A stretch of DNA of 64,000 nucleotides, taken from an uncultured Rhodospirillales bacterium. GTDB lineage: Bacteria > Pseudomonadota > Alphaproteobacteria > Rhodospirillales > UBA2165. The notes under the pieces are model-generated. The model was not told the DNA's origin and made no database searches. It worked only from the letters and a program-made list of their open reading frames with translations. Position 1 is the stretch's first letter. Each line of letters starts with the position of its first letter. The position numbers and the translations under genes were made by a program. Below, one piece after another: positions 7,770 to 28,104 of this stretch. The DNA lies in NCBI GenBank assembly GCA_905614355.1, contig CAJQSN010000010.1:8868-72867 (forward strand). Direction: 5' to 3'.

Positions 7770-7874
7770 GGAGTTGGAATGGGTGAAGACAAAGTAAAAA
7801 TATTCGACGTTATCATTGAGGCCAAGGGATAAGCCGTCGGCAAAATGCGCAATGAAGTGACGGTAACTTTAGGC

Positions 7875-7988
7875 AATGAAGGCGCGTCTCAGGTTCCATT
7901 GAGGAATGCTAAGTGCCCAGAAACTAGACCAAATTACAGGGAAAAAGACTGAGTAACCCAATGGCAAGGGTACCTGGCGGAGAGGGTG
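7875..7988. repeat. 114-bp direct repeat copy 1 (att-like): last 14 nt of tRNA-Ser plus 100 bp of tRNA-downstream sequence
   Basis: Hand alignment with 27913-28026 at a constant offset of 20038 nt gives 8 mismatches and no indels. It ends with tggcggagagggtg, the reverse complement of the tRNA 3' end CACCCTCTCCGCCA. Confidence 0.8.
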
Positions 7989-8177
7989 TCCTCCAACTAA
8001 CCTAATTTATTTTTATATATTAATGGGTTATAATTAATTATTTACCTTACCCATGTCTGTACCCACGTTAATAATCGTGCTTAAATCAGCGCTCCCTAAG
8101 ATTTCAGTAGATCTAGTAGCTACAATATCCAAAGTAAAATCTAACCAATTGCATCAATTACGCCCGTCTCAATTCTC

Positions 8178-8289
8178 CCTTTAAACTACAAAGAGACGCC
8201 GCTTTTACCGAGTGGCGCCAACTTTGTGCGGCATAATAGAGACACTTTCATCGCATTCAGAGACTAGTTAGCATTCGTCTGACAACACT
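8178..8289 (+). mobile_element. IS6-family right-end remnant (degenerate transposase 3' codons + degenerate IRR)
   Basis: Reads ...NYK..EWRQLCAA* followed by gagactagttagcattcgtctgacaacact. This is the reverse complement of the IRR GGTGCTGTCAGACxAATGCGAACTCGTCTC with 4 mismatches. The left limit is approximate. Confidence 0.6.
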
Positions 8290-8313
8290 AATGTGACAAT
8301 GCCAGACCCGATC

Positions 8314-9024
8314 TTAGCCTGAAACTCCGATCAGGCCTTCGAGCTTGACGGCATCATTGCGTAAGATCTCACTATCACCATCATAGGTGACATGACCCCG
8401 GTCCATGACCACGGTGCGGTCGGAAAAATCAAGTGCGACCCGGGTGTTTTGTTCGACCAGGATCATCGACATGCCGCCGCTGTCCCGTAATCGGGCCATG
8501 ACGCGCATCAATTCTTCAACGATCACTGGCGCGAGGCCCTCTGAAGGCTCATCCATCAAAAGGAACCGAGGATTGGTCATCAGCGCGCGGGCGATGGCTA
8601 ACATTTGTTGTTCGCCTCCAGATAATTGATTACCCATATTGCTGCGCCGTTCGATTAGATTGGGAAACAGCTCGAACAAGGTGTCGGCTGTCCATTCGCC
8701 GGGCCGAGCACCAATGTTTAAATTCTCCTCGACCGTAAGCGAGGGAAATATTTCACGCTCCTGTGGCACATAACCAATACCCATAGTAACCCGCTGGAAT
8801 GACGGCGTCGCCGAGATATCGCTGCCTTCCAACTGGATGCTGCCATCATGCAAAGTGGTGTGGCCCATGATGGTCGCCAGGAGGGTTGATTTGCCGACAC
8901 CGTTGCGGCCAATAACGCTGATGCTTTCGCCGGGGGCTAAAGACAGTGACAGCTCATCGAGTACCATGGTTTCGCCGTAACCGGCGGTGACGTTTTTAAC
9001 TTCGAGGGCTGCTGTATCAGTCAT
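8314..9024 (-). CDS. branched-chain amino acid (HAAT family) ABC transporter ATP-binding protein, LivF type
   Basis: Walker A GRNGVGKST, signature LSGGEQQML, Walker B LLMDEPS. The ATG at 9024 is preceded by GAGGG; the track's GTG at 9036 is an alternative start. Confidence 0.85.
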   Translation of the reverse strand: MTDTAALEVKNVTAGYGETMVLDELSLSLAPGESISVIGRNGVGKSTLLATIMGHTTLHDGSIQLEGSDISATPSFQRVTMGIGYVPQEREIFPSLTVEENLNIGARPGEWTADTLFELFPNLIERRSNMGNQLSGGEQQMLAIARALMTNPRFLLMDEPSEGLAPVIVEELMRVMARLRDSGGMSMILVEQNTRVALDFSDRTVVMDRGHVTYDGDSEILRNDAVKLEGLIGVSG

Positions 9025-9772
9025 GGCTGCCCTCACCTAAATAAACCGCCTGGACTTCTTCATTGGCGGCAATGTCATCGGGTGAGCCTTCGGCGAGGAT
9101 GGCACCACGGACCAAAACAGTAATGCGCTCGGCAAAGCGGAATACCACGTCCATATCGTGCTCAATGATGAGAACGGCGATATCCTTGGGCAAGCTATCG
9201 ACGGCATCCAGGATAATATGGCTCTCAGTCGTGGGCACACCAGCTGCCGGCTCGTCGAGCAGCAACACCTTGGGGTCGAGGGCCAGCGCGATGGCAATTT
9301 CAACCAGGCGCTGGCGGCCATAGGGGAGTTCGTGAATTTCCGTCAGCGAATCCTCTTCGAGTTTGAGGATGTTTAAAATCCGCACAGCCTCTTCCATCAC
9401 GGCTGAATCTTTGCCGGCTGGGCGCACCAAACTTGTCGCAACGCCCATGCGTTCGGAAATGGCTAGATAGAGATTTTCGATCACGCTCAGTCCCATGAAC
9501 AACGTATTAATTTGGAACGTTCGGGCGATGCCGTTCTTGACCCGTTGGTACTCGGCCATACCCGTGATATCACCGCCCGCCAGATATACACTGCCGGAAC
9601 TCGGGCTAAGCGCGCCGGTGAGGAGGTTGATCAAAGTCGTCTTGCCAGCGCCGTTCGGACCGATAATGGCGTGCCGTGCCCCGGGTGCTAGGGCAAAATT
9701 GACATTGTCGGTGACGGCAAGGGCACCAAAGTTTTTTGCCAGGTCACGGGTTTCTAGAATCGGCTTGCTCAT
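9017..9772 (-). CDS. HAAT-family ABC transporter ATP-binding protein, LivG type
   Basis: Walker A GPNGAGKTT, LPYGRQRLVEIA signature region, LLLDEPAAG. The ATG at 9772 overlaps the upstream stop as ATGA. Confidence 0.85.
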   Translation of the reverse strand: MSKPILETRDLAKNFGALAVTDNVNFALAPGARHAIIGPNGAGKTTLINLLTGALSPSSGSVYLAGGDITGMAEYQRVKNGIARTFQINTLFMGLSVIENLYLAISERMGVATSLVRPAGKDSAVMEEAVRILNILKLEEDSLTEIHELPYGRQRLVEIAIALALDPKVLLLDEPAAGVPTTESHIILDAVDSLPKDIAVLIIEHDMDVVFRFAERITVLVRGAILAEGSPDDIAANEEVQAVYLGEGSHD

Positions 9773-10788
9773 TGGCTGCGGTCTTTCCATTTTTCACCGA
9801 TATCCTCAAAAATGCCGTAGAGGCCGCGCCTTGCAAATAGCACTGTCAGAATGAGGACGATGCCGATGGTAAGTTGCCAATAAGGCTGGTTGGTACCGAG
9901 AATTTGCTCGGTGAGGCTTTCCAAAATCTTAAATACAGTGGCGCCGATAAATGCGCCATAGAGCCGCCCGGTGCCGCCGAGAATAATCATGATCAAAACG
10001 TCGCCCGAGAGCTCAAATGCATAAACACCGGTGGTGACATTGCCTTGGACCTGAACCCAAAGCGCCCCAGCAATGCCGGCAATGGCCGCTGAAATCACAT
10101 AAACCAAGACTTGGCGCTGATGCACCGGCGTGCCGATGGCGGACATGCGTTTGGTGTTTTCCCGGATACCGATCAGCATCCGTCCGAACGGCGCGTGAAC
10201 GATGGTCCGGATTAACAGGAAGCTAAGGAAAAGCACAACCAGCACATAGATATAGCTACTGGTATACCAAAGCTGGTCTATTTCAATGAGGCCGAATATC
10301 TCGGAATTGGTGAAGTTGATGCCGTCAAAGCCGCCGGTAATTTCATCGAAATCATTGGCGAGCTCTCCCAGCATAATGGTCACGGCCATGGTCAGGACCA
10401 AAAGCGTTAACCCGGCGGTGCGCAGCAGCACCCAGCCTGATAAAAAGCCGAGTACAGCGGCGCCGATGGCGGCCGCGACCAGCCCAATAAGGGGGTCCGG
10501 AATATTATTAGCTGCTAAAAGGGCTGTGATATAAGCCCCGGTGCCAAAAAAAGCGGTATGGCCGAGCGAGATGATTCCGGCATAACCGACGATCAGGTCT
10601 AAGGAAAGGGCAAACAGGATCATCACCAGGATCTGGGTCGCCAGCAATCGGTAGCCCGGCAATAGATAGAAAACAGCGATGGCAATGACCCAGGGGAGGA
10701 CTTCCGCCCAATGAAAGCGATGACGCGTTTGCAGGAACTTAACGGCTTCGGCTGTTGCTGCCGTGTCGGCTCCGGTGATGGCGGTCAT
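9769..10788 (-). CDS. HAAT-family ABC transporter permease, LivM type
   Basis: Multi-TM protein with the GYAGxxSLGHxAFFGxGAY motif typical of LivM. Confidence 0.85.
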   Translation of the reverse strand: MTAITGADTAATAEAVKFLQTRHRFHWAEVLPWVIAIAVFYLLPGYRLLATQILVMILFALSLDLIVGYAGIISLGHTAFFGTGAYITALLAANNIPDPLIGLVAAAIGAAVLGFLSGWVLLRTAGLTLLVLTMAVTIMLGELANDFDEITGGFDGINFTNSEIFGLIEIDQLWYTSSYIYVLVVLFLSFLLIRTIVHAPFGRMLIGIRENTKRMSAIGTPVHQRQVLVYVISAAIAGIAGALWVQVQGNVTTGVYAFELSGDVLIMIILGGTGRLYGAFIGATVFKILESLTEQILGTNQPYWQLTIGIVLILTVLFARRGLYGIFEDIGEKWKDRSQ

Positions 10789-10792
10789 ACTA

Positions 10793-11668
10793 TCACGCCT
10801 TTCCGAAGAGCCCTTGCGGGCGGATCAAAAGGACAAGGATGGTCACCGCGAAGATGACAAAAGCGCCACCTTCCGGAAAATAGAACTTCCCAGCAAAATC
10901 GATAATGCCGAGAATGAGAGCGGCGAAGAATGTACCACGAATATTACCGAGGCCGCCGACAGCAACCACGATGAGAAAGATCACCAGATATTCAAAGGCG
11001 AAGACCGGCTTGATGCCGCCAAGGATTTGGATGCCAAGGCCGCCACCAAGCGCTGCCATGCCGCTGCCGAGGGCAAAGGTCCAGGTGAAGATGCGGCCCG
11101 TATTGATGCCGCAAGACTCGGCCATGCGCCTATTGTCGACCGCGGCCCGAATTTTAGCGCCGATGCTGGTTCGCTCCAAACCGTAGAACAACCCCGCGAC
11201 AATTACGGCGCCGGCGACAATCATAAAGATGCGGTATTTCGGAAAGATATTAAAGCCGAGATTGATACTGCCTTGTAAATATTCCGGCATTAGAATCAAG
11301 TGCGGGTCGGGGCCCCAGATAAATGTCACGCCTGCGATCGATACAAAGACTAGCCCAATCGTCAGCAGCACCTGATCCAATTCCGGGCGGCGATAAAGAT
11401 GGCGATAAAGAAAGCGCTCAAACGGAATGCTGAGGAAGGCAACGACGATAAAAGCTATCAGCAGGGCAACGGCAAAAGGCACATTCATCTGGCTCACCAG
11501 TGTCACGGTCACATAACCGCCCGCCATGGCAAAAGAGCCATGTGCTAGATTGGCAAAGCCCATAAGCCCCATGGTGATCGATAGGCCTACTGATATGATA
11601 AACAATAACATCGCATAGGCTAGGCCGAAAACCAGGACCGTGGAAATTTCATTTAGAAATGAAGACAT
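10793..11668 (-). CDS. HAAT-family ABC transporter permease, LivH type
   Basis: Multi-TM protein with the GLxGFANLAHGSFAMAGGY motif typical of LivH. Confidence 0.85.
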   Translation of the reverse strand: MSSFLNEISTVLVFGLAYAMLLFIISVGLSITMGLMGFANLAHGSFAMAGGYVTVTLVSQMNVPFAVALLIAFIVVAFLSIPFERFLYRHLYRRPELDQVLLTIGLVFVSIAGVTFIWGPDPHLILMPEYLQGSINLGFNIFPKYRIFMIVAGAVIVAGLFYGLERTSIGAKIRAAVDNRRMAESCGINTGRIFTWTFALGSGMAALGGGLGIQILGGIKPVFAFEYLVIFLIVVAVGGLGNIRGTFFAALILGIIDFAGKFYFPEGGAFVIFAVTILVLLIRPQGLFGKA

Positions 11669-11786
11669 GCTTATTTTAAAGTCCGGTAACTTAAAAAGCG
11701 AGATAGATAAAAGATCTCAGGAAGGAACCAGCCGATGATGGTATTTCACACCACCGGCTGATTAATTACCCAAAGCGTCGGTATTA

Positions 11787-13004
11787 CTAGTAAAGCTTTT
11801 TGCCGCATTTGCCGAGCTTGAGCTCCTTACATTTGTCCTTAACGGCCTCAAACTTCTGCTGAATTTCCTGGACCAGCAGGCCACCTTTTTGCCGTACGGT
11901 AGATATATAGACATTTTGCACAATATCACGCGTTTCAGGATCAATAGAGATCGGCCCACGCGGGCTGTTAAATTTCCAGCCTTTTAGCCTCTTCATAGCA
12001 CCGTCCGCGGTAAGCTTGCTACCGTTGGCCGCCTTGATTGCCGCATATACAGCTGCCATACCATCATAGCCGCCGACACCGACAAAGTCAGGAACGGATT
12101 TTGCACCATACTCAGCTTGCCAGGTTTTGACAAAAGCTTGGTTTTCGGCTGATTTCAGGAACATGTTGTAATGGGACGCTGTGACCACGCCAACCGCTGC
12201 TGGGCCCATGGCCTGAAGAAGGCTGCTTTGCGTGATGTCGCCGGGGCCAATAAGTTGGACGCCTGCTTTGCGCATGGCAAGAGCTTGATAGGTCTTGGCA
12301 ACTGCCGCTGCGTGGTTGCCGCCTGGCACGAAGACATACATGCAGTTTGGGTTTTTGCTTTTGGCACGTTGGAAGAAAGGTGTGAAATCTGGCACCTTAG
12401 CTGGGCCACCCATCGGAATTGCATCGATGACCTTACCGCCTGAAGACTCAAAGCCTTTTTTGAAAGCTGCGACGCTATCTTTTCCGGGAGGGTAATTCGT
12501 GTAACCGGAAACGGCTGTTTTGCAGCCCAACTTGCCGGCGGCGTGTTGGCCCATGATGTAGCCCGACTGCCACATGGTGAAGGAGACCCGCACCATATAA
12601 GGCGACATATTAGGAATGAAGGCAGTGCCCGCATTCATGATCACGACCGGCGTTTTGGATTTATTTACCAAAGGGGCAATCGACATTGCGTTTGGCGAAA
12701 AGATCAGCCCGGTGATTAATTCGACTTTTTCGCGGGTGATCAATTCTTGCGCCGCTGCCTTGGCGATGGGGCCGCCCGGACGCTTTGAATCACGCACGAT
12801 CATCTTAACCGTGTGTCCACCAAGCTGGCTTTTATGCAGTTTCATGTAAAGCTTGGCACCGCGCTCCATTTGCTGGCCAAGTTGGGCAGCGCCACCGGAC
12901 ATTGGTCCAATAAAGCCGATTTTATACTCACGAGCGTCCGATTGGACCGCCGAGAGAGCTAGAATACCAGCCGCCGATAAGGCCGGAATGAGATATTTTT
13001 TCAT
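11787..13004 (-). CDS. HAAT-family ABC transporter periplasmic substrate-binding protein (LivK-like, ligand unknown)
   Basis: Signal peptide MKKYLIPALSAAGILALSAVQSDA followed by YKIGFIGPMSGGAAQLG, typical of type-1 periplasmic binding proteins. First gene of the 5-gene minus-strand operon. Confidence 0.8.
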   Translation of the reverse strand: MKKYLIPALSAAGILALSAVQSDAREYKIGFIGPMSGGAAQLGQQMERGAKLYMKLHKSQLGGHTVKMIVRDSKRPGGPIAKAAAQELITREKVELITGLIFSPNAMSIAPLVNKSKTPVVIMNAGTAFIPNMSPYMVRVSFTMWQSGYIMGQHAAGKLGCKTAVSGYTNYPPGKDSVAAFKKGFESSGGKVIDAIPMGGPAKVPDFTPFFQRAKSKNPNCMYVFVPGGNHAAAVAKTYQALAMRKAGVQLIGPGDITQSSLLQAMGPAAVGVVTASHYNMFLKSAENQAFVKTWQAEYGAKSVPDFVGVGGYDGMAAVYAAIKAANGSKLTADGAMKRLKGWKFNSPRGPISIDPETRDIVQNVYISTVRQKGGLLVQEIQQKFEAVKDKCKELKLGKCGKKLY

Positions 13005-13182
13005 TGTTAGTATCCTCCGAGTTGTTTTCTTTGTTTTAAATCATAAAATCTTTTAGTTCGACTACCTATCTGTTTAGTTGATCCTCAACATATTGCAATA
13101 GATTATAGGGCATTGTCCATACGCCATTATCAAGATCAAACTCGTCCATTCGGGCATTTAAGGCTTCGCTCGTTCTAACGAG

Positions 13183-14002
13183 GGTGCTGTCAGACAAATG
13201 CGAACTCGTCTCAGATTAGCGTAAATACGGTGGTTTTATGCAGCACAGAGTTGCTGCCACTCAATAAGAGCAGCTTGACGTTGAACCTTATATGTAACTC
13301 TAGGATTTAAGTGACGTTCCTTGTTGAAGTGATTGAAAACTGAAGCGTGGATTGAGACGAATTTTTGCAAACTTCGCATCCGCCTAAACTTCAACATGGC
13401 GTATTCTCGTCGGCGAAAAGGAAGGTGAGAGTTTTCACAGCGATTGTTAACCCACCGACCCGTTTCTTGAATACCTGCATTTCCGATCATTTTAAGTGCA
13501 GCACGATAAGATGGTAGTTTATCAGTTACGATTGATTTTGGATTGCCATATTTTTTCATGATTTTCTTGAGGAAAACTAGTGCTGATTTTCGGTCTCTGC
13601 GCTTGGATACAAAGGCCTCAAGAACCTCGCCCTCATGATCAACGGCTCGCCACAAATAGTGTGTCTCACCATTGATCTTCACGAAAACCTCATCAAGATG
13701 CCACTTCCAATTTGAGTGATTGGTAATTGGGTGCATACGTTTTTTACGAATTTCGCGTGCGAACATTGGGCCAAATTTATTCCACCAATAGCGAACGGTT
13801 TCATGACAGATGTCGATACCGCGCTCGTGGAGAAGATCTTCTACATTCCGCAGAGAAAGAGGAAATCTGACATACATCATGACGGTGAGGTGAATAATCT
13901 CAGGTGACGTCTTGAAATAACGAAACGGATTGTGATTTTTCATCCTCAAATTCTATGGATTTAGGTGATCGACGTCAAAGTAGGTTTTCCTCTGACAGTG
14001 CC
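13183..14002 (-). mobile_element. intact IS6-family insertion sequence (820 bp)
   Basis: Single transposase ORF flanked by imperfect terminal IRs: GGTGCTGTCAGACAAATGCG (13183, plus strand) and GGCACTGTCAGAGGAAAACC (reverse complement ending at 14002). Same length class as IS26. The 8 bp on either side differ (ctaacgag vs aaacggat), so there is no target-site duplication. Confidence 0.85.
13236..13949 (-). CDS. IS6-family DDE transposase
   Basis: 237 aa. N-terminal HTH region (FKTSPEIIHLTVMMYVRFPLSLRNVEDLLHERGIDICHETVRYWWNKFG). DDE candidates in WHLDEVFVKINGE, IVTDKLPSY and NNRCENSH. Confidence 0.9.
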   Translation of the reverse strand: MRMKNHNPFRYFKTSPEIIHLTVMMYVRFPLSLRNVEDLLHERGIDICHETVRYWWNKFGPMFAREIRKKRMHPITNHSNWKWHLDEVFVKINGETHYLWRAVDHEGEVLEAFVSKRRDRKSALVFLKKIMKKYGNPKSIVTDKLPSYRAALKMIGNAGIQETGRWVNNRCENSHLPFRRREYAMLKFRRMRSLQKFVSIHASVFNHFNKERHLNPRVTYKVQRQAALIEWQQLCAA

Positions 14003-14082
14003 AAACGGATTGTTATTTTTCATCCGAGAAGGTTACGAATTTAGCGCTTAACCGTCAAAACCAATTTTCCTCTGACAGTGCC
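14003..14082 (-). mobile_element. IS6-family left-end fragment (IRL + 7 transposase codons) abutting the intact IS
   Basis: The reverse complement reads GGCACTGTCAGAGGAAAATTGG...ATGAAAAATAACAATCCGTTT (MKNNNPF) and stops exactly at the IRL terminus of the intact copy. Confidence 0.7.
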
Positions 14083-14083
14083 C

Positions 14084-14220
14084 GAACGTCACATAATTGA
14101 TAGAGAAAATTTCAAGTTGCAACGCAATGCCGCACTTGTCGAATAGCAGCAGCTTTGTGCTGCATATATTCCCATTATTCACGATACACAGAGACGAGTT
14201 CGCATTCGTCTGACAGCACC
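14084..14220 (+). mobile_element. IS6-family right-end fragment (degenerate transposase 3' end + IRR), opposite orientation
   Basis: Reads ...ERHIIDRENFKLQRNAALVE*QQLCAA, compared with ERHLNPRVTYKVQRQAALIEWQQLCAA in the intact copy. It ends gagacgagttcgcattcgtctgacagcacc, the reverse complement of the IRR with its terminus at 14220. Confidence 0.7.
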
Positions 14221-14247
14221 TGTTCATGGATTATGGCCCTGCAAAAT

Positions 14248-16026: not shown

Positions 16027-16040
16027 CCCAGGCCCCTCGT

Positions 16041-16808: not shown

Positions 16809-16846
16809 CGCGTGGTCCTCTCATAGACGGATAACAATATAATTTT

Positions 16847-18823: not shown

Positions 18824-18824
18824 A

Positions 18825-21583: not shown

Positions 21584-21846
21584 TTCTTGCTGCCCAAAAT
21601 TTAAATGTTTCCGATGACAATCGCCGCATCTTTAGGCCTTGCCATTTAGCATTCAAAGTAAATTAATAAGTTAAATTCAATAGTTAATGAGCTTATTTCA
21701 TCTTTTTTTTAAGATCAAGTATTATTTATTTTCCTGTATTACAGCCAATTTTTATCGGTTGTAGAAAAATGTATTCCAGAATATGGCAATAAGGATTTTT
21801 TAATATAGGTTATTTTTTTACTAACGAATATGGCTCATTATTTTTG

Positions 21847-21876
21847 TTGACTCTCACATGTGGGTAAGCATATAGC
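21847..21876 (+). promoter_or_regulatory. candidate sigma70-type promoter for the SDR-TetR-ligase unit
   Basis: TTGACT (21847-21852), 18-nt spacer, TATAGC (21871-21876), in a 417-bp AT-rich divergent intergenic region. By eye only. Confidence 0.25.
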
Positions 21877-21923
21877 ATTTAGACGATTATTTTTACCAGC
21901 TGATACTTTAAATGCTTAATTTG

Positions 21924-21951
21924 CCGAAATTGAAAGAAATTTAAATTTCGG
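21924..21951. promoter_or_regulatory. nested palindromes, candidate TetR-family operator
   Basis: Perfect 14-bp palindrome GAAATTTAAATTTC (21936-21949) inside the inverted repeat CCGAAATT...AATTTCGG (21924-21931 / 21944-21951), ~65 bp upstream of the SDR start. Confidence 0.3.
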
Positions 21952-22015
21952 AAAATTAGGAAAACTCTGGGTAACAAGGCTAGGCGATATAATAAAATAG
22001 ATGGGAGAAGTGAGA

Positions 22016-22870
22016 ATGGAGAGTGAAATTCTCGAATTTGGAATGGACGACAAAGAACTCGAAAGCCACCCGACAATTTATCGGCCGGATTTTCTTGTTG
22101 GCAAAGTAGCTGTAATTTCAGGCGGCGGAAGCGGTATAGGGCGCGCTGCAGCATGGTTGTTTGCTCGACTTGGCGCTCGGGTCGTCATATGCGGGCGAAA
22201 ATTAGAAAAATTGAAATCCGTTGCGGCCAGCTTGAAAAAAGTGGGGCTCGAAGCACAACCTATCGTTTGCAATATCCGCGATGACGAAAGCATCGAAGCG
22301 ATGTTCTCAAAAGTCGAAAACTTATTTGGTGGTTGCGACATTTTGGTTAATAGTGCGGGCGGCCAGTATCCTCAGCCAGCGATTGACTTCACTATTAAGG
22401 GCTGGAACGCCGTTATTGAAACCAACTTAACGGGTACATGGCTGATGATGCAGACAGCAGCTAGATATTGGCGTAAATCAAGTCGACCCGGTTCAATCGT
22501 CAATATTGTGACAGTTGTTGAAAGAGGTCAGCCGGGTATCGCCCATTCTTGTGCAGCCCGGGCTGGCGTCATCGCCCTTAGCAAAACGGTCGCCATCGAA
22601 TGGGCACCCGATAAAATTCGAGTTAATTGCATTGGACCAGGCCCCATTGATACCGAAGGCCAGCGGGTATACACCGAAGAAACCCGCAACCGATCAGCCA
22701 GGTCTAATCCGATGATGCGTTTCGGTGATTCTTTCGATATCGCTGAAGCAATTATTTTTCTGGCTGCAGAATCCGGAAAATTTATTACGGGGGAAAATCT
22801 AATCATTGATGGTGGCAGTCAGTTATGGGGTGAATTTTGGGTCGGGGAAAAGCCAGAGTATTTTAAGTGA
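22016..22870 (+). CDS. short-chain dehydrogenase/reductase (AtuB/AtuG-like position)
   Basis: Rossmann motif ISGGGSGIGRA, NSAG, and a catalytic-region pattern. The ATG at 22016 is preceded by GGGAGAAG; the track start at 22001 is also possible. Confidence 0.85.
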   Translation: MESEILEFGMDDKELESHPTIYRPDFLVGKVAVISGGGSGIGRAAAWLFARLGARVVICGRKLEKLKSVAASLKKVGLEAQPIVCNIRDDESIEAMFSKVENLFGGCDILVNSAGGQYPQPAIDFTIKGWNAVIETNLTGTWLMMQTAARYWRKSSRPGSIVNIVTVVERGQPGIAHSCAARAGVIALSKTVAIEWAPDKIRVNCIGPGPIDTEGQRVYTEETRNRSARSNPMMRFGDSFDIAEAIIFLAAESGKFITGENLIIDGGSQLWGEFWVGEKPEYFK

Positions 22871-22933
22871 TTTTAGCTGAAAAAAGTTTTCATCTCGGCA
22901 CCCGAGTCTAACATCGTCGCAAGGATAGGAAAT

Positions 22934-23671
22934 ATGAACAAAGCAATAACAACAACTCGGCGTAGGGCAAAGCGTTTATCGCCGGAACAGCGCACGAGTG
23001 ACATTGAAAAAGCCGCCCGTCAGATATTTTCTGAACGTGATTATGACGATGTTTCCATAGCCGAGATCGCTGCAGAAGCCAATGTTGCCGAAGGTACCAT
23101 TTACAAATATTTCGAAAATAAACGAGATCTAATGATAAAGGTGCTTGAACATTGGTACCAATCAATGATTAGCGACTATATTGAGCATGTTGATGCAATC
23201 CAAGGTGCCCAAAACAAGATCCGCTACATTATTTGGCGCCATTTGAAATCATTGAAAGAAAACGCTGATCTGTGTCGTTTATCGTATAGCGGTTTAAAAA
23301 ATACCGCTGAATATTTTGATAGCTCGATCTACGAATACAATCGAGAATATACAAAAGTTTTTGTTGACGCATGCCGCGAAGGAATAGCATCCGGCGAGCT
23401 GCGCCAGGATCTGCCTATTCCGTTACTACGCGACTTAGTGTTTGGCGGAGTTGATCACATTATCGTCGGATTCTTGTTTAACCAAAGGGATTTCGACGTC
23501 AATACCTCCACCGAACAAATCGTAGGTCTTTTGTTCAAGGGTATTGAGACGCGGGCCGATTTAGAGACTAAGAAGGTGGAATCACTTGAACAATTATCGG
23601 ACTTAGCTGAACGATTTCAAAAATTACTCGATCGCGCCGATCAACTTAGTGGCGTCGATTCAGGAAGATAG
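22934..23671 (+). CDS. TetR family transcriptional regulator
   Basis: N-terminal HTH: VSIAEIAAEANVAEGTIYKYFENKRDL. Confidence 0.85.
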   Translation: MNKAITTTRRRAKRLSPEQRTSDIEKAARQIFSERDYDDVSIAEIAAEANVAEGTIYKYFENKRDLMIKVLEHWYQSMISDYIEHVDAIQGAQNKIRYIIWRHLKSLKENADLCRLSYSGLKNTAEYFDSSIYEYNREYTKVFVDACREGIASGELRQDLPIPLLRDLVFGGVDHIIVGFLFNQRDFDVNTSTEQIVGLLFKGIETRADLETKKVESLEQLSDLAERFQKLLDRADQLSGVDSGR

Positions 23672-23712
23672 AAACTTAAACGGTATCTAAATTTATTGCG
23701 AAAGGCATTGTA

Positions 23713-25572
23713 ATGACAGAAATGCGCGATGTTCGGCTTGGGCAACGTGGAGACACAATAGAATATAATGATGATGGATCGATCATTCTCAGTTCACCAG
23801 AATTGCTAAAACCCTATGCACGCAATTACTCGGAACGTCTCAAATACTGGGCCGACGAAAAGCCGGATGCAACTTTTCTGGGCCAGCGCAATCCCGATGA
23901 TGACGGCTGGATGACATTAACCTATGGCGATGCGTACAAATCAATTTTACACATCAGTCAGGGGCTCCTCAATCGGGGCCTCTCTCAGGTGAAACCACTA
24001 ATAATTCTTTCGGGTAACGACTTCGAACATGCTTTGATGGGACTTTCAGCACTGTTTGTGGGGGTGCCATATGCGCCGTTATCGGTGGGCTACTCTCTCT
24101 TGTCCAAGGATTTCGCAAAACTTCGTCATTGTTTTGAATTGATTGATCCAGGTCTAGTTTATGTTTCAGATGGTGCTCTTTTTCAGCGTGCTATTGAATC
24201 AATTGTTCCCAGTGATGTCGAAGTAGTGGTCGGTCGAAATCCCTTGCCTGAACGGAACATGGCAACTTTTGAGCAACTCAAGGCCACAAAGCCGACCGAT
24301 GCAGTCTATGAAGCAGCCGGAGCTGTTACTGGAGACACGGTGGGTCGCCTTCTTTTTACGTCAGGCTCAACGTCGATGCCCAAAGGCACGATAAATACGC
24401 ATAGAGTTCTGTGCGCAAACCAGCAAATGATAGCTCAATCGCTTCCTTTTTTAGTCGATTCGCCACCAATTATGTGTGACTGGCTTCCCTGGAATCATAC
24501 GTTTGGCGGCAACCATATGTTTGGAACTATTTTATACGGCGGCGGATCTATGTTTATCGATAATGGTCTTCCGGTTCCAGGGGGAATTGAGAAATCTGTG
24601 CGCAACCTCTCCGAAGTTAGACCCACTTTTATTGCCAATATACCGAAGGCGCTTGAGTTAATTTTGCCTTTCCTCGAAAAAGAAGAGGGTTTTAGAAACA
24701 ATTTTTTTAGTCGATTAAACGGAATTTTTTATACGGCCGCTAGTTTACCAGAGGCAGTATTTAAGGCTTACCGAAATCTCTCAGAAATAACAATTGGAAA
24801 ACGTATTTTTACGGTATCAGCATTGGGGGCAACTGAAACGGGGCCAGCGGTAACGATTTGCAACTGGGATACGCCGCAACTGGGTGCCATCGGACTTCCC
24901 ATACCCGGAGTCAAAGCCAAATTAATCCCAAATCGAGGAAAGCTGGAAATCAGAGTAAAAAGTCCGTCGATAATTCCTGGATATTGGAAACAACCGGAAA
25001 AGACAGCGGAAGCCTTTGACGAGGATGGATGGTATAAAATGGGTGATGCTGTTTGCTTTATCGATTCTGATAATCCTTCCGAAGGCCTATTGTTTGATGG
25101 CCGGGTTGTTGAGGATTTCAAATTGTCGACAGGCACCTGGGTTAACGTTGCTTTATTAAGGATTTCCGCAACGGATATTTTTGCTTCCTTGATTAGTCAA
25201 GTCTTAGTTTGTGGCCATAGTCGAGATGAGATTGGGCTGGTCGTATTTCCGGATTTTGAATATTGCCGGCAACTTGCAAAACTACCTCAAGAGGCCTCGG
25301 TAAACGAGATTTTGTCAGCAAAAATGATACAAACATCCTTTCAACAACGCCTTGATTTGATATGTGCTCAAGGCACCGGCAGCTCTAACCGTATTGCTCG
25401 AATAATTCTCACTGATAAACCACCTTCCGATATTGAAGTTACCGATAAAAACACACTCAGCACAAATGTTGCGCTGGAATGTCGCGCTGAAGAAATTGAG
25501 CGACTTTATAGTGGCGAAAAATTAGAATTTGTTTTTAACGCTAAGCGCGACATGGTCCGAGAAAGGCAATAA
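23713..25572 (+). CDS. AMP-dependent synthetase/ligase (acyl-CoA synthetase, AtuH-like position)
   Basis: AMP-binding motif LLFTSGSTSMPKG, GATETGP, and WYKMGD in the C-terminal subdomain. Confidence 0.8.
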   Translation: MTEMRDVRLGQRGDTIEYNDDGSIILSSPELLKPYARNYSERLKYWADEKPDATFLGQRNPDDDGWMTLTYGDAYKSILHISQGLLNRGLSQVKPLIILSGNDFEHALMGLSALFVGVPYAPLSVGYSLLSKDFAKLRHCFELIDPGLVYVSDGALFQRAIESIVPSDVEVVVGRNPLPERNMATFEQLKATKPTDAVYEAAGAVTGDTVGRLLFTSGSTSMPKGTINTHRVLCANQQMIAQSLPFLVDSPPIMCDWLPWNHTFGGNHMFGTILYGGGSMFIDNGLPVPGGIEKSVRNLSEVRPTFIANIPKALELILPFLEKEEGFRNNFFSRLNGIFYTAASLPEAVFKAYRNLSEITIGKRIFTVSALGATETGPAVTICNWDTPQLGAIGLPIPGVKAKLIPNRGKLEIRVKSPSIIPGYWKQPEKTAEAFDEDGWYKMGDAVCFIDSDNPSEGLLFDGRVVEDFKLSTGTWVNVALLRISATDIFASLISQVLVCGHSRDEIGLVVFPDFEYCRQLAKLPQEASVNEILSAKMIQTSFQQRLDLICAQGTGSSNRIARIILTDKPPSDIEVTDKNTLSTNVALECRAEEIERLYSGEKLEFVFNAKRDMVRERQ

Positions 25573-25576
25573 AAAA

Positions 25577-25606
25577 GGTGCTGTCAGACAAATGCGAACT
25601 CGTCTC
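25577..25606 (-). mobile_element. solo IS6-family IRR (30 nt)
   Basis: GGTGCTGTCAGACAAATGCGAACTCGTCTC, identical to 13183-13212. It begins 4 nt after the ligase stop codon. Confidence 0.6.
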
Positions 25607-25619
25607 TGTATGGCACGGG

Positions 25620-25818
25620 GGTGCTGTCAGACGAATGCGAACTCGTCTCAGAGTATCATAAATACGGTGGTTTTATGCAGCACAAAGTTGCTGCCACTCA
25701 ACAAGAGCAACGGTTTGAACGACGCCGAAGGCTGAATACCTTTGCACAGATGCGGCAAGAGACCCTGATATGATTGAGTGGGCGCATGGTCGGGCGATAA
25801 AATAGATGGAAAAATAAG
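25620..25818 (-). mobile_element. IS6-family right-end remnant (IRR + degenerate, internally deleted transposase 3' part)
   Basis: GGTGCTGTCAGACGAATGCGAACTCGTCTC is followed by the reverse complement of ...ASV..VVQTVALVEWQQLCAA*. Shorter than the intact copy. Confidence 0.6.
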
Positions 25819-25956
25819 GGCACTGTCAGAGGAAAACCCACTTTGACGTCGATCGACTAAATCCATAGAGTTTGTGGATGAAAAATCCCAATCCCTTCCG
25901 CTATTTTAAAACATCACCGGAGATTATCCGCATTGCCGTTATGATGTATGTCAGGT
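25819..25956 (+). mobile_element. IS6-family left-end fragment (IRL + ~26 transposase codons)
   Basis: GGCACTGTCAGAGGAAAACCC, then ATG at 25878 encoding MKNPNPFRYFKTSPEIIRIAVMMYVR. Similarity to the intact copy stops there. Confidence 0.7.
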
Positions 25957-26065
25957 TGCGACAAATTACTTCTAAGTTCGCCCCCGGTTCGTCCCAAGGA
26001 CCATCTTGAAGAAGTCCCATAAAACCACCTCGTTTTAAATAATTGAATATTTCAGAAAGACTATT

Positions 26066-26473
26066 TTAACGACGTTTATCTAAAGAGTAACTGCCACCAC
26101 CATTCGCAACCAGAACAAGAAATCCACCCACGATCGCGATATTTTTCATGAACATTCCCATTTGTATTTGATTTGAAAAATCAGCATGAAAAAGGATCGC
26201 TGACAAAAGACAAAATCCAGCGAGTAAGAATGCAAATATTCGTGTTTTCCAGCCAACTATAACAGCCATTCCGCCAAATATTTCCAATGCAATAACAATA
26301 GGTAGCAAGTCCCCAGGAACACCCGCTGAATTCATGAAACCTACCGTGTTCTCATAACTACTAATCTTGTTCAAACCAGCCATAAAAAAGATACCCGCAA
26401 TGAAAATACGTCCAATTGGCGCCATCAAACTATTGAATTTTGATACATAAGAAATTGATTCAATATTGGTCAT
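26066..26473 (-). CDS. DoxX family membrane protein
   Basis: 135 aa with 4 predicted TM segments. GRIFIAGIFFMAGLNKI and LEIFGGMAVIVGWKTR are typical of DoxX. Confidence 0.8.
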   Translation of the reverse strand: MTNIESISYVSKFNSLMAPIGRIFIAGIFFMAGLNKISSYENTVGFMNSAGVPGDLLPIVIALEIFGGMAVIVGWKTRIFAFLLAGFCLLSAILFHADFSNQIQMGMFMKNIAIVGGFLVLVANGGGSYSLDKRR

Positions 26474-26520
26474 GTTTATCCAAACCTTTATATATACTTG
26501 TTAAACCCACCTCTGATTTC

Positions 26521-26558
26521 CAGGTACCGTCGTTGAAATCTGCGAACGACGGTACCTG
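26521..26558. other. perfect 14-bp stem / 10-nt loop hairpin between the small ORF and doxX
   Basis: caggtaccgtcgtt (26521-26534) pairs with aacgacggtacctg (26545-26558). A T-rich tail occurs only on the plus strand (tttggtgattattt). Function unclear: attenuator, processing site or REP-like element. Confidence 0.4.
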
Positions 26559-26566
26559 TTTGGTGA

Positions 26567-26698
26567 TTATTTGTTAGACTTTTCTTCTTGGTATTCGATT
26601 TTCTTTTTCTGATAATCTTCCTCACTTAATGCATGCCATCCAACACAATATCCTGAAGGAGAACGTCCACAGCCACACTTAGGTTTATCATCTTTCAT
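26567..26698 (-). CDS. small Cys-containing protein (43 aa), not in the ORF track
   Basis: Hand translation: MKDDKPKCGCGRSPSGYCVGWHALSEEDYQKKKIEYQEEKSNK. Preceded by AAAGGAAAGAGAAAA. Lies upstream of doxX on the same strand and divergent from lysR. Confidence 0.5.
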   Translation of the reverse strand: MKDDKPKCGCGRSPSGYCVGWHALSEEDYQKKKIEYQEEKSNK

Positions 26699-26753
26699 TT
26701 TTCTCTTTCCTTTATTTCAATGAAGAAATAGGTAGTATACTATTAATTTTAAG

Positions 26754-26766
26754 ATGATAATATCAT
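26754..26766. promoter_or_regulatory. candidate LysR box (T-N11-A dyad)
   Basis: ATGATA-A-TATCAT is a perfect 6-1-6 palindrome 38 bp upstream of the LysR start, in the divergent intergenic region. Confidence 0.3.
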
Positions 26767-26803
26767 ATTTAGTTATAATTTATTTAACTACAGGTTATTA
26801 ATC

Positions 26804-27691
26804 ATGATATATGATACTGGCTTTGAGATGATGCTTGAGGTCGCGAAGTATAAAAGTTTTACAAAAGCTGCGCATACCCTTGGTGTATCTGGAGCCGCGG
26901 TAAGTAAGCAGGTCAAGTCCCTAGAACATCGCCTAGGTCTAGTATTATTCCACAGGACTACACGAACAGTGTCGTTGACAGAGGCTGGCAACCAAATTGT
27001 TGAAGCACTCAGCCGCAGCAATGATGAAGTATCTGGTCTTTTAGAAAAACTCGCAGAGAGACAGGAGCGTCCTTCAGGCAAACTGAAAATTAACGCTCCG
27101 ATGGCATTCGGCGAGAGTTTTCTTGTGGGTCCAATTGCTGATTATGCTTGTCTTTACCCAGATGTGATTGTTGATGTTGAATTCAATGATGAACGAGTTC
27201 ATCTAGTTGAAGAAGGTTATGATTTAATTATACGCATAGGTACACTAGAAGACTCGGGTTTGATCGCCAAGCGACTTTGCGATTTTCCAACTCATTTATG
27301 CGCAAGCCCTGCGTTTCTTAAACAACACGGAGTACCACAAAAACCTGGTGATTTGCGCGGAATACCTGCTGTAATATACACAAAATCTTCTACTGGGCCA
27401 TTGTTGGAGTTACGTGATCCTCGCGGTGTCGAATATACAGTACCTCTGACACCTGCAATCTTTACGAACAGTATCGCTATGTTATTAGAGAGCGCTATAA
27501 AAGGTATAGGTTTCGCGCAATTGCCATCTGTTTTTTGCCATAAATATATCGAAGACGGCATACTAAAAACGTTATTACCAAAATATACGTCTATGCCTAA
27601 AAGAGGAATTTATATCATCTATCCAGATCGAAGGTATTTGCCAATGAAAGTCAGATCATTTATTGATCTCGTGGAAAAGCACCTTTCCTAG
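26804..27691 (+). CDS. LysR family transcriptional regulator
   Basis: HTH FTKAAHTLGVSGAAVSKQVKSLEHRLGLVLFHR plus a LysR substrate-binding domain of typical length (295 aa). Confidence 0.85.
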   Translation: MIYDTGFEMMLEVAKYKSFTKAAHTLGVSGAAVSKQVKSLEHRLGLVLFHRTTRTVSLTEAGNQIVEALSRSNDEVSGLLEKLAERQERPSGKLKINAPMAFGESFLVGPIADYACLYPDVIVDVEFNDERVHLVEEGYDLIIRIGTLEDSGLIAKRLCDFPTHLCASPAFLKQHGVPQKPGDLRGIPAVIYTKSSTGPLLELRDPRGVEYTVPLTPAIFTNSIAMLLESAIKGIGFAQLPSVFCHKYIEDGILKTLLPKYTSMPKRGIYIIYPDRRYLPMKVRSFIDLVEKHLS

Positions 27692-27763
27692 AAAATACTT
27701 TAACTTAATATCTAGATATTTTTTCATAAAACTATTCGGTTTGGAACTATTACCGTTAGAGGG

Positions 27764-27834
27764 GGCACTGTCAGAGGAAACCTGATTTAACGCTATCGCT
27801 GCTTTCTCATAACCTTTGTGGATGAAAAATCCCT
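27764..27834 (+). mobile_element. IS6-family left-end fragment (IRL + 4 codons)
   Basis: GGCACTGTCAGAGGAAACC, then ATG AAA AAT CCC at 27822; similarity is then lost. Lies 78 bp from direct-repeat copy 2. Confidence 0.65.
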
Positions 27835-27912
27835 GTTAATCAGGGAAACAGGCCAAAGGGAACTGCCTAAAAACCCTAACTGAGACTATTGAGAAAAAGC
27901 CTGCCATTATCA

Positions 27913-28026
27913 AATGAGGGTGCGTCTCAGGTTCCATTGAGGAATGCTAAGTGCCCGGAAACTAGAACAAAATACAGGGAAAAAGACTGAGCAACCCAAA
28001 GGCAAGGGTAGCTGGCGGAGAGGGTG
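27913..28026. repeat. 114-bp direct repeat copy 2 (att-like), overlapping the tRNA-Ser 3' end
   Basis: See copy 1. Nt 28013-28026 are the genuine tRNA 3' end. Confidence 0.8.
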
Positions 28027-28104
28027 GGATTCGAACCCACGATACATTTGCATGTATACCAGTTTTCGAGACTGGCGCGATCGACCGGGCTCTGCCACCT
28101 CTCC
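28013..28104 (-). tRNA. tRNA-Ser (anticodon CGA)
   Basis: Reverse complement: GGAGAGGTGGCAGAGCCCGGTCGATCGCGCCAGTCTCGAAAACTGGTATACATGCAAATGTATCGTGGGTTCGAATCCCACCCTCTCCGCCA. It has a 7-bp acceptor stem, anticodon stem CCAGT/ACTGG with loop CTCGAAA, a long variable arm (ATACAT/ATGTAT), T arm GTGGG-TTCGAAT-CCCAC and an encoded CCA. The D stem looks weak by eye. Confidence 0.85.

Follow-up and report, generated by a model that had tools for sequence, protein, structure and literature searches.

Genomic islands in tRNA genes and tandem arrays at tDNA hotspots have been catalogued by Islander/TIGER (PMC4383910), and integration modules in which DUF2924 accompanies a large serine recombinase (LSR) are known in Wolbachia WO-type prophages (PMC10299305, PMC11342252). 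The locus described here lies at a tRNA-Ser(CGA) gene in a window of 64,000 nt (the whole stretch of DNA analysed). It is probably a decayed pile-up of islands, formed by serial integrations at this gene and later frozen and rebuilt by IS6-family elements.

Repeat pair at the tRNA-Ser(CGA) gene

An intact tRNA-Ser(CGA) gene, the integration target, occupies 28013–28104 on the reverse strand (ARAGORN; Rfam RF00005, 50.7 bits). Two 114-bp direct repeats, at 7875–7988 and 27913–28026, align without gaps at a constant offset of 20038 nt with 106/114 identity (MAFFT). Self-BLAST returns the pair with E = 1.6e-42, and the repeat search recovers it as family D2; neither found a third copy in the window. 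Both copies terminate in TGGCGGAGAGGGTG, which on the opposite strand reads as the final 14 nt of tRNA-Ser. The tRNA gene is continued from the right copy only, and the similarity between the copies stops at 7988/7989. All eight mismatches fall within the 100 non-tRNA nt; the 14 nt belonging to the tRNA match throughout, and the longest perfect block is 35 nt. The dimensions of the repeats and the position of the tRNA 3′ end in both of them had been reported in an earlier sequence-only reading and were reproduced here, the latter with ARAGORN and Rfam.

The 100 nt outside the tRNA are the conserved end of a mobile-element family encoding an LSR and a DUF2924 partner. This end lies between the LSR gene and a tRNA-Ser gene with one of four anticodons (CGA, TGA, GCT, GGA) in ten related contigs. 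Contigs L001, L002, L005, L007 and L009, whose flanking MR_MLE protein is identical to that of the window, carry the tRNA, the same 190 nt and a 558-aa Resolvase+Recombinase protein (the LSR) in this order, with DUF2924 upstream of the LSR. The LSR with its spacer abuts tRNA-Ser(TGA) in L046, tRNA-Ser(GCT) in L058 (LSR 90% identical) and tRNA-Ser(GGA) in L059 (LSR 74% identical); in L049 and L047 the LSR and the 190-nt end are joined to an IS6 end with no tRNA. The neighbours of the module differ strongly among L001, L058 and L059, and the far end (attR) of the element could be located in neither L059 nor L001. The spacer contains eight TTCCCTG heptamers, which LSRs are not known to require. 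The LSR is the presumed enzyme targeting the tRNA. The 100-nt end is absent from the type B strains (L003, L004, L006 and L010), which have the identical flanking gene.

A pattern of 29 specified bases derived from the repeat gave no matches in 185,579 species genomes or in IMG/VR and four in metagenomes. Three of the four lie beside an LSR gene; the fourth is L048, a contig that begins exactly at the 190-nt boundary, so that any linkage to an LSR gene falls outside it. Across these collections the repeat is not a dispersed one, as against the generic dispersed element considered in the sequence-only reading.

The left copy (7875–7988, reverse strand) comprises 100 nt from an older LSR/DUF2924 element (its recombinase-proximal end) and the displaced 14-nt 3′ end of tRNA-Ser (7975–7988). 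It carries six private substitutions scattered across the 100 non-tRNA nt and is 85–93% identical to all other close family members (the divergent L059 end, at 67%, excluded), including 90–93% to the LSR-element ends of L001, L002, L005, L009, L048 and L058. Homology to the LSR element ends at 7875 and does not extend into the LSR gene; to the left of this point, neither an LSR coding remnant (tblastn) nor an IS scar was found. The shortening of this older element to 114 nt is left without explanation by the pile-up model. The right copy belongs to a longer relic (27823–28026, reverse strand), consisting of 190 nt of terminal sequence from a younger, second LSR/DUF2924 element and the 14 nt that complete the tRNA. 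From 27823 onward this relic is collinear with L001, L002, L005, L007 and L009 at 96–98% identity, and the right copy itself is 95.6% identical over 114 nt to type A ends from sibling strains, where the element retains its LSR.

Judged by these alignments, the two copies are separate relics, the ends of two related LSR elements. The direct repeat would then most likely reflect homology between these ends rather than the duplication made by a single integration. The view of the 20 kb as an old tRNA-targeted island stands as regards the targeted site and the loss of recombination genes, but not as regards one att duplication, the 100 nt being LSR-element DNA. Nothing encoded in the window can excise the 20 kb site-specifically today; a deletion across the repeat through RecA could conceivably occur, though rarely, given perfect identity over blocks of up to 35 nt.

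Integrase remnants, IS6 elements and cargo

Directly inside the left copy, the segment 7989–8146 (forward strand) is a putative vestige of the P arm, on the integrase side, of a tyrosine-integrase island of the L048 type. Its first 20 nt (7989–8008, TCCTCCAACTAACCTAATTT) match TCCTACTAACTACCTATTTT in L048 and also resemble the TCCTAC... arm preceding related integrases in L062–L066; past these 20 nt no similarity to L048 was found, and the integrase gene expected from near 8150 is gone. In L048, the 190 nt and 14 nt are followed by TCCTACTAACTACC..., two tandem copies of TGTAGGTAA and a 408-aa P4-type integrase. In L066, a 14-nt tRNA-Ser(GGA)-type 3′ end is followed by TCCTACTAATC, TTTGTGGGTAAGTTTGTGGGTAA and an integrase (71% identical), and TCCTCCAACTAACC occupies the corresponding position in the window. 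By this resemblance the left junction is probably the attR of a tyrosine-integrase island. The outside flanks of the L048-type integrase differ widely in L062–L066, and in L062–L065 they contain no tRNA fragment; therefore, the target rule of this integrase family is not absolute.

A relic of 81 nt from the P′ (tRNA-proximal) side of the same island type lies at 25738–25818, where it is cut by an IS6 end. It is 90–100% identical to L003 (146–220), L004 (1–54) and L010 (105–185), and its counterpart in sibling strains is located 158 nt downstream of tRNA-Ser. L003, L004 and L010 share the two tandem copies of TGTAGGTAA with the integrase-side arm of L048; in the type B contigs this tandem lies 55–85 nt downstream of tRNA-Ser(CGA).

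The sequence-only reading had noted no integrase between the repeats, which holds for intact genes. However, a fragment of a P4-type tyrosine integrase gene (26 codons, 78 nt, TLVRTSEALNARMDEFDLDNGVWTMP), cut by an IS6 element, is present at 13108–13185 on the reverse strand. It shares 93.6% nucleotide and 88% amino acid identity with the integrase adjoining tRNA-Ser(cga) in the MAG L011, the nearest genome, and only 43% with the L048-type integrase. The fragment evidently represents a third type of integrative element at the locus. The relatives in L048, L066 and L011 have the Arm-DNA-bind_3, Phage_int_M and Phage_integrase architecture.

One complete IS6-family copy and seven fragments were found between the repeats. 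The complete element (b) occupies 13183–14002 (reverse strand), with the transposase at 13236–13949 (Pfam DDE_Tnp_IS240, E = 3e-43) and the ends GGTGCTGTCAGAC and GGCACTGTCAGAGG. Its distant matches are annotated as IS6 family transposases on Sulfitobacter, Ruegeria and Mesorhizobium plasmids, the nearest annotated relatives of the window IS6 being only ~67% identical. Fragment (a) at 8147–8290 (forward strand) retains the last ~144 nt, including the right inverted repeat (IRR), and encodes transposase residues 206–238 (self-BLAST, tblastn). Next to the complete copy, fragments (c) and (g) are nested at 14003–14220 (repeat family D4; self-BLAST, tblastn): (c), at 14003–14083, is a left inverted repeat (IRL) end, and (g), at 14084–14220, is an IRR end facing the atu cluster. 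Two further IRR-end fragments, (h) at 25573–25609 and (d) at 25620–25729, lie on the reverse strand within 25573–25729 (repeat family D3), and two IRL-end fragments on the forward strand: (f) at 25818–25963, with transposase residues 1–29, and (e) at 27763–27833, truncated where it meets the LSR-element end. IS6 debris at both inner edges had been recognised earlier, at 8178–8289 and 27764–27834; self-BLAST gives the slightly wider extents of (a) and (e).

All cargo modules are IS6-bounded, in keeping with the earlier suggestion that IS6 activity remodelled the interior, and modules of the same kind recur in other samples (L050, L067). By Pfam, the first (8314–13004, reverse strand) encodes an ABC transporter of the Liv type (branched-chain amino acid family), comprising two ATPases, two permeases and one periplasmic binding protein, at a GC-content of 0.525 and GC3 of 0.57–0.64. 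The second (14248–25572) is an atu/liu-like acyclic-terpene or leucine catabolism cluster encoding AtuA, enoyl-CoA hydratase, biotin carboxylase alpha subunit, acyl-CoA dehydrogenase and carboxyltransferase beta subunit, with a divergent set of SDR, TetR regulator and acyl-CoA synthetase genes. It is flanked by inward-facing IRR ends in a composite-transposon-like manner; in L067 its right end is 99.6% identical and is followed by a longer IS6 copy. The third (26066–27691) comprises DoxX (26066–26473, reverse strand) and a LysR regulator (26804–27691, forward strand) with IS6 ends on both sides, and is 99.8% identical and IS6-flanked in L050.

The left flank (1–7874, forward strand) encodes, by Pfam, Opp/Dpp-type ABC components (two SBP_bac_5 proteins and two permeases), glyoxalase-fold proteins, an EF-hand protein and a SnoaL-like protein; for two of its proteins no exact copy was found in public assemblies. 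Its GC-content is 0.486 against ~0.42 for 28105–64000, and its tetranucleotide distance to the latter region, 0.303, exceeds the maximum of 0.105 reached by 8-kb chunks of that region. The compositional break on the right coincides with the tRNA, and there is none at 7875. DNA of foreign composition thus continues to the window edge, and the accessory region as a whole reaches beyond the repeats. The proposal of a larger array continuing to the left comes close to the truth, these 7.9 kb being as foreign as the interior. Other strains carry other elements at the tRNA, and none was found with 28027 joined directly to the sequence left of 7875, the empty site that had been suggested as a check.

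Proposed history and alternative explanations

Each piece of the locus has identified homologues, and from these we infer that at least three elements were inserted serially at the tRNA, each displacing the earlier ones. The 20-kb interval would be a single compartment of this pile-up. No single contig with the full array was seen, and the order of the elements E1, E2 and E3 is a reconstruction. Each integrating element would bring its own copy of the tRNA 3′ end and displace the previous one together with the downstream DNA. An LSR/DUF2924 element (E1) would have integrated first, its end becoming the tRNA-downstream sequence. An L048-type island with a P4-type tyrosine integrase (E2) would have followed, with the crossover within the last 14 nt of the tRNA, leaving the E1 end, the 14 nt and the E2 integrase-side arm at 7875–8008 and the other E2 arm beside the tRNA. 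Integration of a second LSR element (E3) would account for the 190-nt end now at 27823–28012, and an L011-type tyrosine-integrase island may also have been there at some stage. IS6 insertions, nested insertions and adjacent deletions would finally have removed all recombinase genes, leaving the 78-nt integrase scrap and the 114-nt and 190-nt LSR-element ends, and added the IS6-bounded Liv transporter, atu cluster and DoxX-LysR cargo.

It is also conceivable, though unlikely, that the locus is a tandem array of one composite island with a P4-type tyrosine integrase at one end and an LSR module at the other. On this reading, its attP would be the L048 sequence, and the left copy an attP-like junction between tandem units, the left one running past the window edge. 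In L048 the integrase arm does follow the LSR-element end immediately, foreign DNA is likewise present left of 7875, and the integrase adjoins the junction as expected near attP, next to which integrases are usually located. However, the 190-nt end lacks the TGTAGGTAA arm-type tandem present on the L048 integrase side and in type B; type B therefore provides the more coherent partner arm. Moreover, the LSR module (L001, L058, L059) and the L048-type integrase (L062–L066) each occur with quite different neighbours, and the LSR-element homology halts at 7875 instead of entering the LSR gene.

A classical single integration into native chromosome, with a 114-bp attP/attB identity block, the repeats as attL and attR and an integrase lost later, would fit direct repeats that contain the tRNA 3′ end and flank DNA of atypical composition. 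This model is largely refuted and very improbable: the 100 nt outside the tRNA are element DNA, linked to LSRs at four different tRNA-Ser genes and missing in type B strains despite the identical flanking gene; of the eight mismatches, which all lie outside the tRNA, six are unique to the left copy; the sequences at the two inner edges come from different types of element; and the foreign composition persists left of 7875. IS6 elements generate duplications and deletions, and IS6 fragments lie ~160 nt and ~80 nt inward of the two copies, as might follow from a segmental duplication of the tRNA-downstream region by IS6 replicative transposition or unequal crossing-over, with no site-specific integration. 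Such an origin is likewise very improbable, as neither copy is abutted by an IS end, the duplicated stretch stops precisely at the 14-nt tRNA crossover, and L048 independently has the same junction and the same next 20 nt. The copies also differ by 7%, against strain-level variation of 0.3–2% at the locus, and are not specially close within the 114-nt family.

Comparison with known systems

The locus resembles the tRNA islands of Islander/TIGER in the intact tRNA at one end, the displaced 3′ fragment further out in direct orientation, the foreign composition, the occupancy varying by strain and the outward push of older elements by successive integrations. Unlike these, the window has no intact integrase, its long repeat is probably homology between related element ends and not an att core, and its array mixes relics of three recombinase types. 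Sibling strains share with WO-type modules the gene order of DUF2924 followed by Resolvase+Recombinase, and have ParB-methyltransferase and DUF5681 phage-like genes beside the LSR module, whereas in the window no gene is left, only non-coding ends of 114 and 190 nt. The LSR family here is associated with tRNA-Ser gene 3′ ends, its predicted target; LSRs more often target protein-coding genes. L048, L066 and L011 are similar to P4-type tyrosine integrase islands in having arm-type motifs in tandem and in crossing over within the final 14 nt of the tRNA, but the window retains only 20 nt of one arm and 81 nt near the other, and its integrase scrap belongs to a different subfamily.

The IS6 copies correspond to pseudo-compound transposons of the IS6/IS26 family (an 820-bp IS with a single DDE_Tnp_IS240 transposase and 14-nt GG... 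terminal repeats). As in IS26-type remodelling, they are nested and truncated, and the cargo is bounded by IS ends; target-site duplications are unreadable in the window because the flanking copies are truncated. Unlike IS26-type composites, the atu module has inverted, not direct, flanking copies. The locus is a worn-out genomic-island hotspot, an ordinary structure of a known kind rather than a new kind of element.

The repeat pair, the tRNA-Ser target and the extent of foreign DNA

The 114-bp direct repeat proposed by the sequence-only reading was recovered by alignment and by self-BLAST (E = 1.6e-42). The left copy (7875–7988) and the right copy (27913–28026) align without gaps and are identical at 106 of 114 positions. 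As had been claimed, both copies finish in TGGCGGAGAGGGTG, which is complementary to the final 14 nt of the tRNA, and only the right copy runs into the tRNA gene. ARAGORN and Rfam both detect this gene as an intact tRNA-Ser(cga) at 28013–28104 on the minus strand, so that an intact tRNA stands at one boundary, as the tRNA-island test expects. The displaced 14-nt tRNA 3′ fragment at 7975–7988 is in direct orientation and identical to 28013–28026, as in Islander-type islands. All eight mismatches between the copies fall in the 100 nt outside the tRNA. The longest mismatch-free block within the repeat is 35 nt, which makes only a rare homologous deletion of the 20 kb plausible, and nothing encoded in the window could excise this DNA site-specifically. 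Within the 64-kb window, no copy of the repeat beyond the two was found, the Rfam scan returned nothing apart from the tRNA, and the tRNA was the sole match to E. coli genomes (75%), which speaks against an enterobacterial host. No empty tRNA-Ser site was found among the short contigs of relatives; there, the same tRNA is occupied by a large serine recombinase (LSR) element, by the arm of a tyrosine island or by an integrase.

The genes to the right of the tRNA (28105–64000) are metabolic, without mobility functions, and their GC-content is about 0.42, compared with 0.38–0.53 in the modules to the left and 0.486 in the left flank (1–7874). The tetranucleotide distance between 1–7874 and 28105–64000 is 0.303, while the maximum for 8-kb chunks of the latter region is 0.105. 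This contrast places the right compositional boundary at the tRNA and shows no boundary at 7875, so that foreign DNA reaches the window edge. The claim that the repeats bound the island is therefore not sustained: the left flank is as atypical as the interior, native chromosome does not begin outside the left copy, and the left boundary of the accessory region is outside the window.

According to Pfam, the DNA left of the left copy (58–7769) encodes Opp/Dpp-type ABC components, glyoxalase-fold proteins, an EF-hand protein and a SnoaL-like protein. The interior comprises a Liv-type ABC transporter (8314–13004), an atu/liu-like cluster (14248–25572; AtuA, enoyl-CoA hydratase, biotin carboxylase, acyl-CoA dehydrogenase, carboxyltransferase, SDR, TetR and acyl-CoA synthetase) and, after it, DoxX and a LysR regulator. 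The domain content of 14248–25572, including both the alpha and the beta subunit of an acyl-CoA carboxylase, is that of an atu (acyclic terpene utilisation) gene cluster, with terpene or leucine as the predicted substrate. Exact-protein look-ups with the left-flank proteins at 6828–7769 and 6399–6818 and with LivF (8314–9036) found no identical protein on record.

The left flank also contains paralogous SBP_bac_5 genes, seen as direct repeats (831–963 vs. 3956–4088 and 144–215 vs. 3272–3343, 74–76% identical) that represent a diverged gene duplication and no mobile repeat. The gene for the EF-hand calcium-binding protein (186 aa, 2426–2986) belongs to a cluster of Opp-type ABC and dioxygenase genes and runs into the long ORF predicted for the following binding-protein gene (2814–4550), the real start of which is probably further downstream. 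On the other side of the tRNA, the genes for MR_MLE and GST are direct neighbours in the window (29433/29486) and about 9.5 kb apart (3309–12831) in L011, the nearest genome found. This gap is a second variable spot immediately right of the tRNA.

LSR/DUF2924 elements and the right copy

Many marine metagenome contigs, of two types, encode an MR_MLE protein identical to that of the window (28351–29433). In type A (L001, L002, L005, L007 and L009), the 190 nt downstream of the tRNA are common with 27823–28012 of the window (96–98% identical), and beyond them lies a gene for a 558-aa LSR (Resolvase and Recombinase domains) preceded by genes for DUF2924, ParB-N6-methyltransferase and DUF5681. Type B contigs (L003, L004, L006 and L010) diverge from the window directly after the tRNA 3′ end. 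A pattern derived from the repeat had no matches in 185,579 species genomes or in IMG/VR, which contradicts the generic dispersed element that the earlier reading had considered as a counter-case. Four metagenome matches were obtained, three of them with an LSR gene homologous to that of L001; the fourth, contig L048, starts at the 190-nt end, hence its LSR link is out of view. LSR relatives are numerous in marine Alphaproteobacteria, and the LSR gene with a spacer of about 350 nt adjoins tRNA-Ser with the anticodon TGA in L046, GCT in L058 (LSR 90% identical) and GGA in L059 (LSR 74% identical). The occurrence of LSR-linked ends beside tRNA-Ser genes identifies the 100 nt as the end of a mobile element, and not as native chromosome or a dispersed repeat.

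The right copy is such an end, 95.6% identical over 114 nt to the type A ends of sibling strains, from which an IS6 end has severed the body of the element at 27833. The conserved non-coding end that separates the LSR gene from tRNA-Ser is present in the window at 27823–28012 and again at 7875–7974. No coding remnants of the LSR (~550 aa) or DUF2924 were found in the window by tblastn (LSR E of at least 2.9); the LSR is present in ten related loci. Given its association with four tRNA-Ser isoacceptor genes, the LSR may catalyse integration at tRNA-Ser (attP × attB). No far-end direct repeat of the element was found in L059, L001 or L002, which leaves its other boundary undefined. A serine recombinase is not expected to leave a long direct repeat at the far side, and L059 is consistent with this. 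In IMG/VR, the LSR and the L048 integrase have relatives of about 50% identity, on contigs without a tRNA or att-site information.

The tRNA-Ser sites other than CGA are located at L046:1242–1331 (TGA), L058:2694–2781 (GCT) and L059:12029–12118 (GGA), and the tRNA 3′ end in each element variant matches the target of that variant. These associations suggest that the LSR family is specialised on tRNA-Ser. Two further variants (L047:1965–1975 and L049:5417–5427) finish in ...GCTGGCGG, followed directly by TGCTGTCAGAC. At this junction, an IS6 right inverted repeat (IRR) is fused to the first 4–6 nt of the tRNA 3′ end, with the tRNA absent beyond, either through a recurrent IS6 rearrangement at the att core or as an assembly effect.

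From the LSR stop codon to the tRNA-Ser 3′ end, the spacer of about 350 nt features eight TTCCCTG/CAGGGAA heptamers (L001:7529–7838; L059:11681–11857); in L059, the LSR of which is only 74% identical, seven of them are at matching positions. The window has heptamers at 7937, 27841 and 27975, with one within each repeat copy. Large serine recombinases are not known to depend on arrays of this kind, and a tRNA target would be rare among serine integrases; a direct statement on it was not found in the literature on tRNA-targeting serine integrases. The heptamers could be binding sites for DUF2924 or ParB-like proteins. According to published descriptions, DUF2924 is part of a family of DNA-binding domains and lies next to the recombinases of WO prophages (PMC10299305, PMC11342252). 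The LSR/DUF2924 system might represent an undescribed class of serine integrases, specialised on tRNA-Ser 3′ ends of any anticodon and, unlike known large serine integrases, dependent on an array of heptamer accessory sites perhaps bound by DUF2924, with relic ends as landing pads; we regard this as a tentative proposal, unlikely as it stands. If it is true, relic ends at a tRNA would recruit further elements and make the hotspot self-reinforcing. The LSR family itself, located outside the window and tied to tRNA-Ser with a repeat-rich end, could serve integrase prospecting.

A probable tyrosine-integrase island at the left copy

The left copy is 85–93% identical over 114 nt to the other close family members and 67% identical to the divergent L059 end, and carries six private substitutions. 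These comparisons mark the copies as separate relics, of which the left appears older and in decay. The LSR-element homology ends at 7875, and no LSR coding remnant was found further left.

The 20 nt after the 14-nt tRNA fragment of the left copy, TCCTCCAACTAACCTAATTT, match L048. In this contig the 190 nt and 14 nt are followed by TCCTACTAACTACCTATTTT, then by two tandem copies of TGTAGGTAA and a gene for a 408-aa P4-type tyrosine integrase directed away from the junction. Similarly, in the NCBI assembly L066 (integrase 71% identical), a tRNA-Ser(GGA)-type 14-nt 3′ end is followed by TCCTACTAATC, tandem TTTGTGGGTAAGTTTGTGGGTAA and the integrase. The junction of a 14-nt tRNA-Ser 3′ end with a TCCTAC...-type arm is shared by window positions 7975–8008, L048 positions 189–222 and L066. 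The arm-type tandem of TGTAGGTAA, expected about 130–150 nt from the core, has no match at ≤1 mismatch in window positions 7700–8300, and a loose GTAGATCTAGTAGCTA tandem is seen by eye near 8107–8123. The integrase with Arm-DNA-bind_3, Phage_int_M and Phage_integrase domains is absent from the window and present in L048 and L061–L066. Type B contigs carry the TGTAGGTAA tandem 55–85 nt downstream of tRNA-Ser(CGA), as would be expected of the other arm of the same attP after integration, and 81 nt of type B sequence are kept in the window at 25738–25818, where an IS6 end cuts at 25818. The L048-like junction and the type B partner arm together point to the left-copy junction as the attR of a tyrosine-integrase island, which on the best reading of the sequences would have integrated into a tRNA-Ser already carrying an older LSR-element end downstream.

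Integrases 92% identical to that of L048 are encoded in three other related loci (L062:100–140, L063:430–480 and L065:215–250), where the TCCTAC... arm is kept and the outside flanks, without a tRNA 3′ fragment, have only GGGGTG in common; such loci may reflect secondary sites of integration or junctions of another type. The type B contig L010 (50–105) contains a piece resembling the 3′ half of tRNA-Thr(UGU), about 230 nt downstream of tRNA-Ser and without an ARAGORN call, which may be another integration scar.

The absence of an integrase between the repeats, noted in the first reading, holds for intact genes (Pfam on all major ORFs; tblastn with the LSR and the two tyrosine integrases as queries), so that the island lacks the integrase gene expected under the Islander definition, but a fragment of 26 codons is present. 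This P4-type integrase fragment, TLVRTSEALNARMDEFDLDNGVWTMP (13108–13185, minus strand), shows 93.6% nucleotide and 88% amino acid identity to the integrase of L011, a Rhodospirillales MAG (MR_MLE 83% identical) in which the gene is immediately downstream of tRNA-Ser(cga). The fragment, a trace of a third type of element, borders directly on the IRR of the complete IS6 copy. Its assignment to the L048-type island was rejected, with 43% identity compared with 88% to the L011 type.

IS6 remodelling and the proposed origin of the locus

The window contains one complete IS6 copy and seven fragments. The complete copy (b; 13183–14002, 820 bp) encodes a single transposase of 237 aa (PF13610 DDE_Tnp_IS240, E = 3e-43) and has the size of about 0.8 kb and the short terminal inverted repeats starting with GG (GGTGCTGTCAGAC / GGCACTGTCAGAGG) that mark the family. 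The fragments are located at 8147–8290 (a), 14003–14083 (c), 14084–14220 (g), 25573–25609 (h), 25620–25729 (d), 25818–25963 (f) and 27763–27833 (e); (a) and (e) bear out the IS6 debris reported earlier at both inner edges. The IS is only distantly related (~67% identical) to IS6-family elements annotated on plasmids of Sulfitobacter, Ruegeria and Mesorhizobium. The 8-nt flanks of the complete copy, TCTAACGAG (13175–13182) and AAACGGAT (14003–14010), do not form an 8-bp target-site duplication, and its position between an integrase fragment and an IS fragment makes rearrangement likely, which suggests that the copy arrived or was rearranged through recombination and not by simple insertion. In the nested cluster at 13183–14220, the complete copy sits 80 nt into the left inverted repeat (IRL) end of a second copy, and this second copy adjoins the truncated IRR end of another, oppositely oriented one. 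That a single IS had been divided by the att region into (e) and (a) was considered and dropped, as no simple path to this arrangement was found.

The cargo modules are framed by IS6 ends. The Liv module is between inverted IRR ends, the DoxX-LysR module between two IRL ends, and the atu cluster between inward-facing IRR ends, with flanks resembling a composite transposon. IS6-flanked versions of the DoxX-LysR module (99.8% identical, in L050) and of the right atu end (99.6%, in L067) are also present in other samples.

The individual pieces and their homologues are directly observed, and from them we infer serial site-specific integration at one tRNA-Ser, where every newcomer would restore the tRNA 3′ end and push the earlier end outward. 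An LSR element probably came first, followed by an L048-type island and then a second LSR element, with an L011-type island present at some stage; IS6 insertions and deletions would afterwards have removed all recombinase genes and installed the cargo. The repeat, as homology between two related element ends, would then lie mostly outside the tRNA and be only 93% identical. A classical single-event integration, the origin first proposed for the repeats, is very improbable: the 100 nt are an LSR-element end linked to tRNA-Ser of several anticodons, the copies are independent relics with the left junction belonging to a tyrosine-integrase island, and foreign composition persists left of 7875 with no break.

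A tandem array of one composite island carrying both recombinases would place both systems in one element and is unlikely, since the arm-type motif is common to the integrase arm and type B and not to the LSR end, and the LSR and tyrosine-integrase modules are also found apart. Least probable of all is a segmental duplication mediated by IS6, with which the 7% divergence between the copies is hard to reconcile and to which the independent occurrence of the same junction in L048 is also opposed.

Read as serial integration, the window is a worked example of a tRNA hotspot that first gathers foreign DNA and later makes it immobile. Three recombinase systems would have shared one 14-nt target in tRNA-Ser before IS6 erased them and, in this marine alphaproteobacterium, fixed useful cargo in the form of a transporter and a cluster for terpene or leucine catabolism. 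A caution for annotation is that long "att-like" repeats at a tRNA can represent homology between the ends of successive related elements and need not mark island limits. The locus differs from a strict Islander-type tRNA island in two defining features, the integrase gene and the delimitation of foreign DNA by the repeats. It is a degenerate tRNA-linked island array remodelled by IS6, and both kinds of structure are already known.
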